From NCBI GenBank assembly GCA_963804645.1, contig CAWDRG010000005.1, positions 192,001-256,000 on the forward strand: 64,000 nucleotides of DNA, written 5' to 3'. The notes beneath the pieces were generated by a model, which did no database searches, had not been told where the DNA came from, and was given only the letters and a program-made list of their open reading frames with translations. Source of the stretch: an uncultured Bacillota bacterium. GTDB taxonomy: Bacteria > Sysuimicrobiota > Sysuimicrobiia > Sysuimicrobiales > Segetimicrobiaceae. Positions 1 to 5,468 of this stretch are shown piece by piece. The position numbers and the translations under genes are program-made. Position 1 is the first letter of the stretch, and each line of letters starts with the position of its first letter.

Positions 1-540
1 GGCTCGGAGTTCATCAACGAGCATCTCTTCCAATATTGCGCGGCCCGCGATATTCAGTTCACTCGCGGCCGGCCCTACAAGAAAGACGACAACGCCCACA
101 TCGAGCAGAAGAACTGGACCCACGTCCGCAAACTCCTCGGCTGGGACCGCTATGCGTCCCCGACGGCGCTCGCCGCCATCAACGCCCTCTACCGCCAGGA
201 CCTGCGCTTGATGATGAATCTCTTCCAACCCTCCGTGAAACTGCAACGCACCAAACGCACGGGCTCGCGCCGGCGCCGGTTCTATGACGCCCCCCAAACG
301 CCGCTCGACCGGCTGCTGACGTCCCAGGGTGCCACCACCGCACAGCTCAAGACGCTCCGCCGCCTCCGTGCCCGCCTCGACCCGTTCGCCCTCTCGGAAA
401 GTATCGAGCGGCAGCTCCGCCACATCTACACTCTGATCCACCGCGGCCCCATTACTCCCACTCGTCACCCGCTTCCGCATCAGCGGTTCGAGATCCATCG
501 CCGCCCGCCGCTCCCGCGCGTCGCCGCCGGACGCCGGTAA
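1..540 (+). CDS. DDE/integrase-core (rve) transposase, IS481-like/ISNCY type, 5'-partial (runs off window)
   Basis: Frame +1 from base 1 reads GSEFINEHLFQYC...FTRGRPYKKDDNAHIEQKNWTHVRKLLGWDRY...NLFQPSVKL...YDAPQTPLDRLL, stop TAA at 538-540. Confidence 0.9.
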   Translation, partial: GSEFINEHLFQYCAARDIQFTRGRPYKKDDNAHIEQKNWTHVRKLLGWDRYASPTALAAINALYRQDLRLMMNLFQPSVKLQRTKRTGSRRRRFYDAPQTPLDRLLTSQGATTAQLKTLRRLRARLDPFALSESIERQLRHIYTLIHRGPITPTRHPLPHQRFEIHRRPPLPRVAAGRR

Positions 541-596
541 CAGCAATATTGGCGTGACGATACCCCCCTTCGGTAACACTTACTTATGGCTTGACA
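535..596 (+). mobile_element. Right end of the IS: two tandem copies of CGGTAAC-N8/N9-TGGC(G/T)TGAC, ending TTGACA
   Basis: 535-558 CGGTAAC AGCAATAT TGGCGTGAC; C-rich 12-nt linker; 571-595 CGGTAAC ACTTACTTA TGGCTTGAC. Confidence 0.7.
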
Positions 597-606
597 GGGG
601 ATACGT

Positions 607-655
607 GTTGCCTCAGTTGCCTCAACAGTCCTGGTCACCGAACGGGGGGGTGTTG
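607..655 (-). mobile_element. Second, inverted IS-like end (3' exon side); its inner repeat is split by the outer intron and continues at 4672-4691
   Basis: Minus strand: [CGGTGAC ACCCATTT TGAGG | CAAC] ACCCCCCCGTT [CGGTGAC CAGGACTGT TGAGGCAAC] TGAGGCAAC; same N8 / C-rich linker / N9 layout as 535-596. Confidence 0.6.
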
Positions 656-778
656 GGTGGGTCGAGGAGTGGCGCGGTGGCCTTGCGGCTCCGTTTCCAC
701 CCCCCGCCTCATCGAACCGGACATGCAGGTTGCCCGCATCCGGCTCCCCTGTCCACTTCGCACCAAGGGTTATGAGAC

Positions 779-3700
779 CTATCGCGCTGGGAGCGCTTTC
801 GGGAGCCTGTACACATATCGGACGCCATAGTCGTCATACAGTCCGAGCGTGCCATAGATCCACTCCCTACTCCACCTCTTCCAGCCGAAGCCTGGTCGTT
901 TTGCCGCCCTCGCCAAGTGGCGTCGCACTTTCTTCTCGACCCAAAACCGCAGATGTGTAAACTGCCGACTGGTGTTCCCGATGCGAAGTAGAGTAAGGAG
1001 TTGGCGCGCCGCGTAGCTCCGCCGTTAGGGGGTACAGCCTGTCCACCTCCATCGGTGGCTTGCAGCCTCCAGCCCTCGTCCCGGGCGACACACGTTTCCA
1101 ACCCCTCCTCATCGATCCGAGCATGACCTTTCCGGTCACTCGGCTCACCGACGTCCTTCACCGACGGTTTTCGCCCCGCTCGAACCGAACGCTTCCGACC
1201 AAGCGGAGCAACCCGACGCGGTTGCCGGACATGATGATGTACTTCATGCCGCGCCCGCGTCCATTCCGCCCGTGTCGTTTGGAGAGCAGCAACGCCATTC
1301 GTTCGACCGTATACCGGTCCAACTTGGCGAAGCAGCGCGTCGAGTTGCCGTACCGATAGTACTCGCGCCACCCCCCGAGAAAACGATTGAGGTCGCCCAC
1401 AACCGTGTGCGTGGGGACGTGGCGACGATTGCGCCCGGTGAGTTCCCGGATCCGAGAACGGCACCGGAGCACGGCTTTGGCACTCGGCCAGCACGCCGGA
1501 TAGCGAAAGCTCGGTCTACGCCGTGAGGGCACCATCTGATGATGGAAACCCAGAAAGTCATATCCCGCGCTCCCGCTTGCGACTCCAACGATCTGCGTCT
1601 TGGAGCCGGACAATGTCAGCCCCAGCTCTTCCAGGGTTGTTGCCAAAACCGCCTTCGCGGCTTCAGCCTTCTCCCGAGTTGAGCAGCAGATGCAAAGATC
1701 GTCACAGTAGCGAACGAGCACTCCCAACGGCTGGTGCTCCGTCATCCAAGCTCGGTCCAAATGATGTAGGACCACGTTAGCCAGGACTGGCGAGAGCGGC
1801 CCACCTTGTGGAGAGCCCTCCGTCGGGGTCGTCAGCGTACCGCTGTCGAGTATCCCGGCGGACAAGATGCACCGAATGAGCTCCACGACCTTCCGGTCGC
1901 TGATCCGCTCCCGGAGACACTCCAAGATGCGGCCATGCGCGAGTCGATCGAAGCAGCTCTCGATGTCGGCATCCACCACCCATGTCCTTCCTGCCCGAAT
2001 CGCCTCCCGCATTGCTTGCAATGCTTGGTGGGCGTCTCGCCGGGGCCGAAACCCGTACGAGCAGGGCAGAAAGTCCGCCTCGAAGATCGGTTCGATGACG
2101 ATCTTCAGCGCTTGCTGGACCACCCGGTCCCGCACATTCGCGATCCCGAGCGGCCGGAGCTTGTCCGGCTTGCCTGGTTTGGGAATCCAGACGCGCCGCA
2201 GCGGCTGCGGACGGTACGTCCCGTCGCGCAGGCTGGCCTCTAGGTCGTCAAGGAACACCTCTACACCGGCCGCCTCAATATCCGCGATGGTAATGGCATC
2301 GATTCCCGGTGCTCCCTGGTTAGCGCGCACCTCCAACCACGCGCGCCCGAGAACGTCCCTGCGATGGACCCGGTCATACAGCGCGTGGAAACGTCGATTC
2401 GGCGACTGCTTGGCCGCCCGGTACAGTTTGTGTTGAAGGGCTCGAACTTTATCGAGGGTGTTGTTGGGCCTCTCGGCCATGCACCAGTTCCTCCCTCTCC
2501 CACAAACGTGGACGAAGCAGGGGCCCTTCGCTCGGGCGGGTTATGTTGTCCCGCCGGTCGTCGCTAATATGGCCCCATCCGACGCCCTCCCGGCTCAGTG
2601 CGACTTCCCGTTTGGCGGTTATACGCACTGGCTGCTCCCGGATCGCAGACCCGGGGCCGGGGAGGGCCTCTCCAGTTCCCGTCACCACCGTCCGAACGTT
2701 CCGCGCCCCTTACGGCGGGGGGTTCTTCGGCGCTGCATTTCCAGGCTCTCCACGCCTTCCGTGGCCTTCGCCCTGGTATTCCGGGCTCGGCTCCCCCTTG
2801 GTCCCTTTCGGGCTGGTCTAACGCCGCGGCAGACTTCACGTCATGCTGCGGACCGCTCGGTTGCTACCTCCGTGAGGCTTCTGACGCTGGGCTTCGGCGT
2901 CAAGCGTTTCCCCCTGACGCCGCCAGCCTGCTACCAGGCTCCCTGGCGATTACCTGGACGGGACTTTCACCCGCTGGCGGTGACGAGCTTACGGGCTACG
3001 CGCTCAATCCTCCCGACACCACCTCCTTCCATCGCGCGTGCCCTCTGGACACGCAATAATTGAGCCATCCGGCGAGGATTGGATTGACCTCGCTGATGAC
3101 TTGCTGCACCGGCTGGGAGCGGTGTTGCCGAAAGACCTCTCGGAGCCGCTGCCGTACTTCAGTGCATTTGTGGCGCGTTGGTACTTGATGTGGGCGCCAC
3201 GCACCTCGATGACTCCGCACCCGGCGAAAGTCGAACCCGAGAAATGTAAACGCTTCCCTCCGCTCAAGATCCACCACGCGGCTCTTCTGCTCATTGACCT
3301 GGATACCGAGCTTCGCGATTTCCTCCCGAATCCGCCGGTTGATCGCCCGCGGTAGCCAATCGTGCCGTTGGTGCGCATCCACCAGGACCACCAGATCGTC
3401 AGCCCACCGCGCGTACGTCACGTTCGGGACCGTTCCCCGCCGTGTAGTTTGCCGCGCCTTCTCCAACATCTCATCGACTGGAGTCAGATAGATATTGGAG
3501 AGCAAGGGTGAGAGAGGGCCGCCTTGTGGAAGCCCTTGACGGCCCGTGGCCTGAAGAACCAGCTTCAGCAAATGCAGGATCGCGGGATCACTGACCCGCT
3601 TCGCGACCTGTGCCAGCAGTATGTGGTGCTGGACGTGGTCAAAATACGCGTGCAGGTCGAGATCGATCACCCGCGTATGGCGAAGTAGGATAGCCTCTGC

Positions 3701-4147
3701 AACGTGGGCCACGGCTTGATGCGCCGTACGTTTCGGGCGATACCCGTACGAACCGGGCTGAAAATCTGCCTCGAAGATCGGCTCGAGAATAAGTTTCAGC
3801 GCTCCTTGTACGACCCGATCCCGGATCGCGGGAATTTGGAGCACTCGCTCCCCGCCGCCCCGCTTGGGAATCGCGTGTTTGCGTGTTGCCAATGGGCGGT
3901 AGCCTCCGGAGACCAGTTCGTCCTGTAGGCGCGCCAGAAACGTCTCCACGCCGGCGGTCTCGATCGCTTCAAATGTGACGCCGTCGATGCCCGGCGCCCC
4001 ATCATTCGCCTTGGCCGCCATGTACGCTGCCTGGAGTGTCTCCAGTTTGCAGACGTGGACGTAGAGGCCCCAGAAGCGCCAAGCCTTGTCGGACTTCGCC
4101 TTGGCGTACAGCCTTCGTCTCAGGTCCTGCACCGTGATGGACGCCAT
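779..4147 (-). CDS. ltrA: Outer intron RT/maturase, 433 aa after splicing; join(4147..3055, 987..779); no HNH domain
   Basis: WRFWGLYVHVCK, APGIDG, PQGGPLSPLLSNIYL, YARWADD; exons 1093+209 nt = 434 codons, giving ...GWLNYFRIGNTSRQF...GFGWKRWSREWIYGTLGLY...LPAR*. Confidence 0.9.
988..3054 (-). mobile_element. Inner group II intron (2067 nt) nested in the outer RT gene
   Basis: 5' GCGTGTCCAGAGGGCACG at 3054; DV GAGCCGAGTGACCGGAAAGGTCATGCTCGGATC at 1146-1114; 3' end CTCCTTACTCTAC at 988; precise removal restores the outer reading frame. Confidence 0.92.
1158..2480 (-). CDS. ltrA: Inner intron RT/maturase, 440 aa, no HNH domain
   Basis: RFHALYDRV, APGID, RPLGIANVRDRVVQ, SYGFRP, PQGGPLSPVLAN, VRYCDD, GWREYY. 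Confidence 0.95.
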   Translation of the reverse strand: MAERPNNTLDKVRALQHKLYRAAKQSPNRRFHALYDRVHRRDVLGRAWLEVRANQGAPGIDAITIADIEAAGVEVFLDDLEASLRDGTYRPQPLRRVWIPKPGKPDKLRPLGIANVRDRVVQQALKIVIEPIFEADFLPCSYGFRPRRDAHQALQAMREAIRAGRTWVVDADIESCFDRLAHGRILECLRERISDRKVVELIRCILSAGILDSGTLTTPTEGSPQGGPLSPVLANVVLHHLDRAWMTEHQPLGVLVRYCDDLCICCSTREKAEAAKAVLATTLEELGLTLSGSKTQIVGVASGSAGYDFLGFHHQMVPSRRRPSFRYPACWPSAKAVLRCRSRIRELTGRNRRHVPTHTVVGDLNRFLGGWREYYRYGNSTRCFAKLDRYTVERMALLLSKRHGRNGRGRGMKYIIMSGNRVGLLRLVGSVRFERGENRR

Positions 4148-4820
4148 TGTCAGATCGTCCGTGCCTCCCCTCGAACTCGGGCCTGTGGACAGCAGGGCTC
4201 CTTTGCTCTCGCGGCATTACCCGCGTTCATCGCTCGTACGAGCCCCTCCGACTTCCTCTCACCGTCGGCGCGTTTCCCGGGTGTTGCCCGGTTATCGCGC
4301 CTACCCAGCTTCCGATGCTTTCCCATCGAGGTGAGGAGGATCTCTCCAGTTGCTGAACGCGTCCTGGTCACCATGCCGTCGCTAACCACCCCGCCGGACT
4401 GACGACAGCTTCTCTGCCAGATATGCTGTCCTCACATTGCCTTCGCCCTTTGAGGGAAGGCTCGGCGCTCCGGAGTCTTCATTCTCGAGGCCACCTCGCG
4501 TTCGCTTGCGCTACGGCCTGGTGACTCGCTCACCCTTCCACGAAGGGTTTTGTCGGCAGGCTTTAGGTAAGTCGGTCTCTCTCCTTCCCGCTGCCCAAGC
4601 TACGAGGGGTCTGGCTCTTCCCTCGACGGAACTGTCTCCCGCTGAACGCGTCCGCGTTCGTCTGGACGCACCCTCAAAATGGGTGTCACCGAGCGTCGGT
4701 GCGGTGCGCCCTTGCCGCGCGTGCGGCGTGGTCCCGGGAACGCGGGGAAGGGACAGAGGTGTTCGTCACTCCGGTCGCGGAAGTTCGAGGTCACGTCTGA
4801 TCCCTGGCGAGGCCGAGACC

Positions 4821-5468
4821 ATGGACCGACCATCGAGCAGTGTGGAACAGCGGCTGGACGAATTGGAACGCACGATCGCGGTCGCGCACGAACGCATCCG
4901 CGTCCTCGAGGCGCGGCAGCGACGGACCGCCCGCTGGTGGTCGCTCGCCCTCGGCGTGGTAATCACGGTCGCGATCAGTTGGAGTGTGAGCGCGCCGGCG
5001 CGCGGGGCCGGCGCCCCCGGATCAACTTCGGCGACGCTGTATACACCGGTCACCGTCGAGGATCGACAAACGCACCAGGTCATTATGACGATCGATAACT
5101 CCGCCCTCGTCATGCGGGATCACCTCAACAACAAGACGGTGGAAATCGGGACGACCACGGCCGGCGTCGGGGCAGTCGCGGTCTACAACGGAAGCCGTAA
5201 GAATCAATCGTTGCTCGTCGATCTGCTCTCGAGCACTCAGAACGGCGGGATGCTGAGCATCGTCAACGCCGGTGGACGTGAGGTCGCAAATCTGCAGGCC
5301 GGATCGGGCGGAGACGGCAGTTTCGAACTGCGCCGGGGCAACGGCAACCGGCTCGTCACCACGGGCGTGACCGCCACGGGGCAAGGGTACGTCTCCACCT
5401 GGACCCACGGAAACACCACGGGAATCCTCATAGGCGAACCGAGCGTGATCGTCGGACCGAAGCCGTAA
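4821..5468 (+). CDS. Hypothetical membrane-anchored protein: N-terminal coiled coil, TM/signal segment, Gly/Thr-rich beta-strand repeats
   Basis: ATG 4821; VEQRLDELERTIAVAHERIRVLEARQ, WWSLALGVVITVAISW, repeated short G-x-G beta segments. Confidence 0.7.
   Translation: MDRPSSSVEQRLDELERTIAVAHERIRVLEARQRRTARWWSLALGVVITVAISWSVSAPARGAGAPGSTSATLYTPVTVEDRQTHQVIMTIDNSALVMRDHLNNKTVEIGTTTAGVGAVAVYNGSRKNQSLLVDLLSSTQNGGMLSIVNAGGREVANLQAGSGGDGSFELRRGNGNRLVTTGVTATGQGYVSTWTHGNTTGILIGEPSVIVGPKP

Follow-up and report, generated by a model that had tools for sequence, protein, structure and literature searches.

The window analyzed here is a 64,000-nucleotide (nt) stretch (positions 192,001 to 256,000 of contig CAWDRG010000005.1, hereafter C5) of the 5.3-Mb draft genome of an uncultured Bacillota bacterium (G000; C15 and C19 are further contigs of the same genome), and its minus strand holds, at 656-4671, a group II twintron, one group II intron nested within another, in the end of an insertion sequence (IS). 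Taken as a whole, the locus is best explained as four stacked mobile elements, a reading to which we give a probability of roughly 0.85: the end of one IS (IS-B), an outer intron that homed into it, an inner intron nested in the first and, with the body of IS-B lost, a related IS inserted alongside (IS-A, which ends at 598). The window's 5'-truncated remnant of IS-B is called IS-B'. A preliminary description of this DNA had assigned the outer intron to one of the terminal repeat units at an IS end, counting three layers, and that account holds, the layers being IS remnant, outer intron and inner intron. Comparisons drew on 94 genomes of the order (labeled G..., G000 included) and on individually retrieved loci or contigs (L...); one genome, G025, is unpublished and supplies one row of the exon-binding site 1 (EBS1) comparison and one 3'-end example, and the results stand without it.

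The twintron and its host end

The nesting of the two introns is real. The outer intron (4671 to 656, minus strand) starts with GTGCG at 4671 and ends with ...CGACCCACC at 656, and the inner intron divides it into a 5' segment (3055..4671), with the GTGCG start, domains 1-4 and the reverse transcriptase (RT) open reading frame (ORF) from its ATG at 4147 to 3055, and a 3' segment (656..987), with the end of the RT/maturase ORF (987-779, stop TAG at 781-779), domains 5 and 6 (D5 and D6) and the 3' end. Rfam matched RF02003 to domains 1-4 (4644-4506, 101.6 bits; gathering score 49) and RF00029 to D5/D6 (748-652, 41.6 bits; gathering score 40). The intron-encoded protein (IEP), a frame of 433 amino acids (aa) that is unbroken once the inner intron is excised and likewise open in a second copy of the twintron on C15, matched RVT_1 (107.6 bits) and GIIM (31.6 bits) in Pfam and TIGR04416 in NCBIfam (327.2 bits, above the cut-off of 300). 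Group II introns have the consensus ends 5' GUGYG and 3' AY; GTGCG fits the former, and the 3' end reads ACC against the latter, as it also does in C15 and in the metagenome contig L082. By these features the outer intron is a predicted self-splicing group II intron.

The inner intron (988..3054, read from 3054 to 988 on the minus strand; 2067 nt, GCGTG...CTCTAC) lies within the maturase-coding part of the outer RT gene and carries an RT/maturase ORF of its own (2480-1158, 440 aa; TIGR04416, 377.7 bits), a match to RF02003 over domains 1-4 (2976-2841, 106.1 bits) and a match to RF00029 over D5/D6 that falls slightly under the gathering score (1148-988, 38.6 bits). Only RVT_1 and GIIM domains were found by Pfam in the two IEPs, the scan being made without the last 70 aa of the outer one. 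The empty site of the inner intron, AATTATT^TTCGCATC, is present in L082, whose outer intron (95% identical in aa, 92-93% in nt) lacks the inner intron and carries the exact empty site AATTATTTTCGCATC unbroken. The NYF residues in this region of the outer IEP are kept in all seven relatives found by motif scan, and alternative bounds for the inner intron (3052 to 986) were ruled out by the L082 empty site together with the conserved NYF. In public peat data placed on 400-4900 (runs X9, X18 and X5), one X5 DNA contig links 909 and 3195 through 218 other letters, the arrangement that an outer intron without the inner one should give, and contigs from RNA libraries cover parts of the inner intron (e.g., 2369-2706 without differences), one of them running on into a different 5' exon.

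The inner intron also occurs by itself, 3' of a palindrome at ~C15:457082-459151 of G000 (boundaries corrected by 2 nt). Over 2071 aligned positions this standalone copy shows 50 differences (2.4%) relative to the window copy and 53 relative to the C15 twintron copy. Divergence between the two twintrons amounts to 4.4% for their inner copies and 6.2% for their outer parts (p=0.009), and therefore the inner intron may have re-homed or been converted separately. The inner intron (3050-3054) and the introns of G076, G037, L148 and L150 start with GCGTG or GCGCG, not the usual GTGYG.

The exons of the outer intron together make up one IS end. On the minus strand, the 5' exon (4672..4728) is the proximal part of the IS-B' right end and consists of a remnant of the IS 3' untranslated region (~4728-4692) and the inner repeat unit CGGTGAC-N8-TGAGG at 4691-4672 (CGGTGAC 4691-4685, ACCCATTT 4684-4677, TGAGG 4676-4672). 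The 3' exon (604..655) is the distal part, with CAAC (655-652), the C-run stretch ACCCCCCCGTT, CGGTGAC (640-634), CAGGACTGT, two tandem copies of TGAGGCAAC (624-616 and 615-607) and the tip ACG (606-604). Joined, the exons read as the preliminary description had stated (CGGTGAC-N8-TGAGG^CAAC, C-run, CGGTGAC-N9-TGAGGCAAC), a layout shared by the right end of IS-A. The 9-bp tandem duplication TGAGGCAAC TGAGGCAAC (607-624) is seen only in IS-B' and is absent from all other IS-B ends inspected.

That description had likened the intron-bearing end to the end of the neighboring transposase element, and the likeness in layout stands, whereas the end itself belongs to a separate IS. By its matches, the host of the twintron is a 5'-truncated IS-B remnant (604-655 and 4672-~4728), distinct from IS-A, because a G070-type IS-B end matches the joined exons and the preceding 35 nt: in G070, from the same genus, an IS-B right end that no intron interrupts agrees with the joined exons at every position between -19 and +14, and window positions 4692-4726 (35 nt) match G070:C6 at 97%, beside a broken IS-B gene. 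Transposase protein searches found no transposase gene or remnant beyond 4728 and no other transposase match on the window's contig. Uninterrupted right ends of related IS copies read ...ACCCATTTTGAGGCA(A/T)CACCCC, and the uninterrupted right inner unit of G067 reads GGGTGAC ACCCATTT TGAGGCATC ACCCC; the insertion point TGAGG^CAAC is exact to the nucleotide, because these empty sites match and a one-base shift either way fails. An alternative 3' boundary for the outer intron, CCCAC|C, was ruled out by the empty IS sites.

The second twintron copy (C15:384636-388652, 94% identical) lies just downstream of a transposase gene, at the same position as in the window, and its host is an intact IS-B with a 434-aa open frame and a 5-bp duplication, GTAAA. 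The left end of this IS-B reads CGGTGTC-N8-TGAGGCATC ... CGGTGTC-N8-TGAGTCA, and its right end has the same kind of unit pair, with the twintron in the inner unit between TGAGG and CATC. Its transposase is 39% identical to that of IS-A. A protein search with the IS-B transposase (94 genomes, E≤1e-20) returned matches in 34 genomes, including G000, and among 10 of the returned loci that were inspected 8 have two right-end units 35 bp apart, arranged as in the window's joined exons, with the inner unit reading TGAGGCA in 7 of the 8. The IS-A and IS-B transposases score 28-29 bits against Pfam rve (IS-A 28.1; cut-off 32.6) and 37.6-44.1 bits against the NCBIfam IS481 model NF033577 (IS-A 37.6; cut-off 224), outside the IS481 family by that model, and the two elements are best described as of unclassified rve (DDE) type, weakly IS481-like.

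Mirror-image unit pairs at both ends of IS-A and IS-B form inverted terminal repeats, and perfect 5-bp duplications were seen by eye at GTAAA (C15), TACGC (G067) and AGGCA (G077), in addition to GGATA for IS-A; such a perfect duplication occurs in 3 of the 8 IS-B copies with both flanks comparable, the others being near or unclear. The GGTRAC-N8/9-TGAGGCAWC units (~24 bp, two per IS-B end, 35 bp apart) are presumably transposase-binding sites. Over both strands of the 5.3-Mb genome the two-unit motif occurs at 7 places, 4 of which adjoin a transposase-like gene, while one is a small terminal-repeat element and one was left unchecked; the resemblance of the ends exceeds chance.

Target recognition and the relatives of the outer intron

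The outer intron would recognize this end through EBS1, the loop CCTCAAA at 4449..4455 (4455-4449 on the minus strand), which pairs at 7 of 7 positions with TTTGAGG, the last 7 nt of the 5' exon (4678-4672). This perfect complementarity had been pointed out in the preliminary description, and the loop is identified as EBS1 because it covaries with the 5' exon in relatives. Across 13 distinct intron/exon pairs (one of them the G025 row, whose removal leaves the outcome unchanged), cognate pairing with intron-binding site 1 (IBS1) averaged 6.4/7 vs 3.4/7 for non-cognate combinations, in line with the covariation that the earlier account had proposed to look for. The loop aligned to EBS1 reads TAATTGC in G076, GATTACC in G037, CCTGTCC in G025 and AACTGGA in a multicopy alphaproteobacterial metagenome-assembled genome (MAG), and each complements its own 5' exon. 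A probable EBS2 loop, AATGA, lies at 4479..4483 (minus strand), in a loop column that pairs with the exon at about -9 to -16 in 8 of 12 relatives; for the window copy the EBS2 assignment is weak. A hairpin at ~4333-4311 with ATGGG was also considered as EBS2 and ruled out, relatives having a GAAA-type loop there.

The same nucleotide of the IS-B inner unit is occupied in three insertions, those of the window, C15 and L082, the last with a left-type IS-B end as its 3' exon. Two further insertions lie in a different IS family. In G076 (79% nt identity) and G072 (where the match stops at the contig end) the intron sits in the left inverted repeat of an ISNCY element, 2 nt from the repeat tip (...GGGTGAC-N8-TGACCTATTA^CA, i.e., ...CTATTA^CA), and uninterrupted copies of that repeat are present in G072 and G000. 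The assignment to ISNCY follows from an intact copy at G000:C19 that scores 383 bits against NF033594 (cut-off 250) and whose left repeat matches the 5' exons of G076 and G072. A separate match at G072:C135 (L007) was judged spurious. Since three insertions share one nucleotide of IS-B and two share one nucleotide of ISNCY, each matching its own EBS1, the pattern is that of site-specific homing, as read from these junctions, and the change of EBS1 with target points to natural RNA-guided retargeting between the ends of two IS families.

Every close relative that shows a flank, five in all, sits in an IS end (window, C15, L082 by its 3' flank only, G076, and G072 by its 5' flank only); in L083 (86% aa) the 3' flank is not recognizable as an IS end. 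The outer ribozyme was matched in only 5 of the 94 genomes. Farther out, the picture changes. We inspected 75 metagenome loci, 57 with a visible 5' junction and 53 with a visible 3' junction, and none of the 57 visible 5' exons at 57-70% protein identity carries the IS motif. Instead, the 3' strand of D5 of another group II intron supplies the 5' exon in at least 21 of the 57 (18 by pattern; L091, L093 and L116 by eye), 13 of the 53 visible 3' junctions lie inside D6 of a related intron, and in reference genomes the relatives, 58-67% identical in protein, sit between D5 and D6 of another group II intron at 12 of the 16 loci with a placed 5' junction. The preliminary description had named homologous introns in unrelated sequences as the outcome that would speak against a lineage aimed at transposon ends, and such homologs exist among the more distant relatives. 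Its claim accordingly keeps its force for the close relatives and loses it for the wider group: because relatives at 57-70% identity are mostly in D5/D6 of other introns, IS-end targeting appears limited to a young sublineage of a clade whose usual targets, as far as the junctions tell, are conserved parts of other mobile elements.

Relatives of the outer intron between D5 and D6 of other group II introns include L015-L025, from an alphaproteobacterial MAG, and many of L084-L160, with at least 11 such loci in the one MAG, and some relatives lie inside D6 of an already nested related intron, giving stacks of three introns. The best annotated plasmid relatives of the outer intron were Bradyrhizobium ltrA introns (65%), and Sinorhizobium plasmid matches were below 60% identity.

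Proposed formation of the stack, competing explanations and known systems

The stack would have formed as follows. IS-B, an element of unclassified rve (DDE) type, would once have lain on the minus strand, and the outer intron would have retrohomed into the inner unit of its right end between TGAGG and CAAC, guided by pairing of EBS1 CCTCAAA with TTTGAGG, a pairing shown by sequence and covariation, and probably by a short, weak EBS2 contact with CATT. A second, related intron would then have entered the maturase-coding part of the first (AATTATT^TTCGCATC) to produce the twintron; the body of IS-B would later have been lost, leaving ~110 bp of its right end, and the related IS-A would have inserted with a 5-bp target duplication directly against the IS-B' tip. 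By analogy with introns lacking an endonuclease domain, mobility would proceed by reverse splicing into the DNA target and priming from the replication fork. That route, and the offer by inverted repeats of one target site on each strand, are described by Zimmerly and Semper (Mob DNA 2015, PMC4424553) and Martinez-Rodriguez et al. (RNA Biol 2014, PMC4615759). An IS end may offer the intron a landing place that lies away from host genes and gains a copy each time the IS spreads. The multicopy safe harbor suggested by the preliminary description is weak here, as the genome has two close-match right-end inner-repeat sites and both are occupied. A further suggestion of that description was that the insertion might disable transposase binding at the interrupted end.

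Several observations weigh against this account. EBS1 in the C15 copy is unchanged (CCTCAAA) even though its IBS1 has one mismatch (TATGAGG), so that there is no covariation between the two genome copies, and the EBS2 pairing of the window copy is poor, at 4 bp only (AATG with CATT at -10 to -7). The outer intron ends in ...CCCACC, whereas the genome-collection relatives have TAC at each of the 19 3' ends that could be located, as do G076, G037 and G025; most other relatives end in ...CCCTAC, and L083 and L136 in ...CCCGAC. The usually conserved penultimate A is thus replaced by C in three independent insertions (window 656-658, C15 and L082), and the ACC end could mean weak 3' splicing of the outer intron, although it can be argued that this end is functional, because three separate insertions carry it. 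In the peat contigs (two DNA and two RNA public runs, on 400-4900) none spans the exon junction, and coverage stops at 4628. The transposase-binding role of the repeat units, finally, is drawn from their position, symmetry and conservation only.

The two genome copies might also stem from spread at the DNA level, in which one insertion was multiplied through transposition of IS-B with the twintron as cargo, or through segmental duplication, and the window copy then lost its IS body. Such a history would account for an inner intron at the identical site in both genome copies, which also fits a twintron moving as a unit, for the intact 5-bp duplication around IS-B and twintron in C15, a composite that could have moved as one, and for the distal unit and tip still intact on the 3' exon side. 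We consider it unlikely. Between the two copies, 10 of 63 exon-flank positions are changed (~16%; the 9-bp tandem copy set aside) vs 121 of 1949 (6%) in the outer intron (Fisher p=0.006), a small-sampled comparison in which faster evolution of non-coding ends may be the simple cause; the flank in the window is closer to the G070-type IS than to the C15 host, itself another IS-B variant; L082, without an inner intron, occupies a left-type end; and G076 and G072 are in another IS family with EBS1 retargeted. Less probable still is survivorship, that is, relaxed retrotransposition to many places with only the copies in dispensable DNA such as IS ends persisting. Relatives do occupy many unrelated sites, among them D5/D6 of other introns, palindromes, sites that look protein-coding by eye (G037 and L150) and an ectopic site with 7/7 EBS1 pairs (L027), but relaxed insertion fits poorly with three insertions at one nucleotide of one IS motif and two at one nucleotide of another IS repeat, each matching its own EBS1.

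A bolder extension of the homing account, which we regard as improbable, is that the insertion point was selected so that both elements travel together, the twintron being cargo of a still-mobile IS. It draws on the fact that only the inner unit is split, the tip-proximal unit and tip being intact, and on the IS-B of C15 with its open frame and duplication. If true, a retroelement would gain the mobility of a DNA transposon, the IS would gain or suffer an RNA-dependent change at one end, and the intron sublineage would be tracking an end motif, GGTGAC-N8-TGA, shared across two IS families.

Homing into IS ends has a published precedent, and the preliminary description, which knew of no described case, is to be corrected on this point: RmInt2, a class D group II intron of Sinorhizobium meliloti GR4, is found within the ISRm17 inverted repeats, a kind of target whose advantage is discussed in the same paper (PMC4615759). 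The window element resembles RmInt2 in having IS inverted repeats as natural targets, with a site at both ends on opposite strands. It resembles the RmInt kind in lacking an endonuclease domain, which that paper states for RmInt1 and which Pfam indicates for the window IEPs (RT and maturase), and the RmInt lineage in the divergence of targets among related introns, RmInt1 being found in ISRm2011-2 and Sr.md.I1 in an IS66 transposase gene (PMC4615759). Unlike RmInt2, it lies in an unclassified rve IS whose ends each have two repeat units, it splits the inner, subterminal one of these, and it is a twintron.

Bacterial and archaeal group II twintrons are likewise on record, e.g., the nested introns of Methanosarcina acetivorans, where, as in the window, the host of a group II intron is itself a group II intron and housekeeping genes are spared, splicing has to start with the inner intron, and nesting provides a lasting homing site (PMC4424553). 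The window differs from known twintrons in that the inner intron splits the maturase-coding region of the outer RT gene, the whole lies in an IS end, and an un-nested outer form coexists (L082 and the X5 contig). IStrons, too, physically combine a self-splicing intron with a DNA transposon, but there a group I intron joined to an IS forms one chimeric unit moved by the IS transposase (PMC4227781), whereas here a group II retroelement would have reached the IS end through RNA-guided insertion of its own. A full-text literature search whose coverage left out most subscription journals returned no case other than RmInt2 of homing into IS ends, and within the same scope neither this IS type nor a twintron in an IS end turned up.

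The window element is a well-documented new example of IS-end homing, not a new kind of element, and no new question arises from it, since both bacterial twintrons and homing into IS inverted repeats have already been published. It documents, in a clean natural setting, RNA-guided retargeting between ends that belong to two IS families, and exact empty sites are known for both twintron layers; this is useful for studying target choice and persistence of group II introns in bacterial genomes. It also brings out an uncharacterized rve-type IS family with two-unit ends whose members appear to insert against each other's tips.

IS-A and its surroundings

The 3' part of the IS-A transposase gene occupies 1..540 on the plus strand (stop TAA at 538-540), its ORF starting at ~C5:191311, upstream of the window. 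The right end of IS-A (535..598, plus strand) has an inner unit CGGTAAC-N8-TGGCGTGAC at 535-558 (CGGTAAC 535-541, TGGCGTGAC 550-558), the spacer GAT ACCCCCC TT, an outer unit CGGTAAC-N9-TGGCTTGAC at 571-595 (CGGTAAC 571-577, TGGCTTGAC 587-595) and a tip ...GACAGG at 598, which we place by analogy with IS-B and by the 5-bp duplication. The left end, with the mirror-image unit pair, is at C5:191208-191271, just upstream of the window. The target duplication GGATA (599..603) has its other copy just before the left tip (left flank ...GTCAA GGATA CGAATCGCGCCA).

GGATA directly abuts the IS-B' tip at 604, so that two related IS ends stand tail to tail, 5 bp apart, and two IS-B right ends are arranged likewise in G067 (L045; ...CATCACG TACGC CGTGATG...), which suggests that elements of the IS-A/IS-B type insert against each other's ends. 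In most copies seen (L042-L048, L082 and the IS-A left flank at C5:~191180), TTGAC(A/G) occurs 5 bp outside the tip, just past the target duplication, and may reflect a preference for certain target sites or belong to a longer sequence that is recognized. A third IS of the IS-A family, whose units start with GGTAAGA, is present at G000:C19:125330-127010, flanked by the direct repeat GAGTCCGAA; on one side of it is an ISNCY-type end and on the other a ~120-bp element that has ISNCY-type terminal repeats of its own (~C19:126864-126985).

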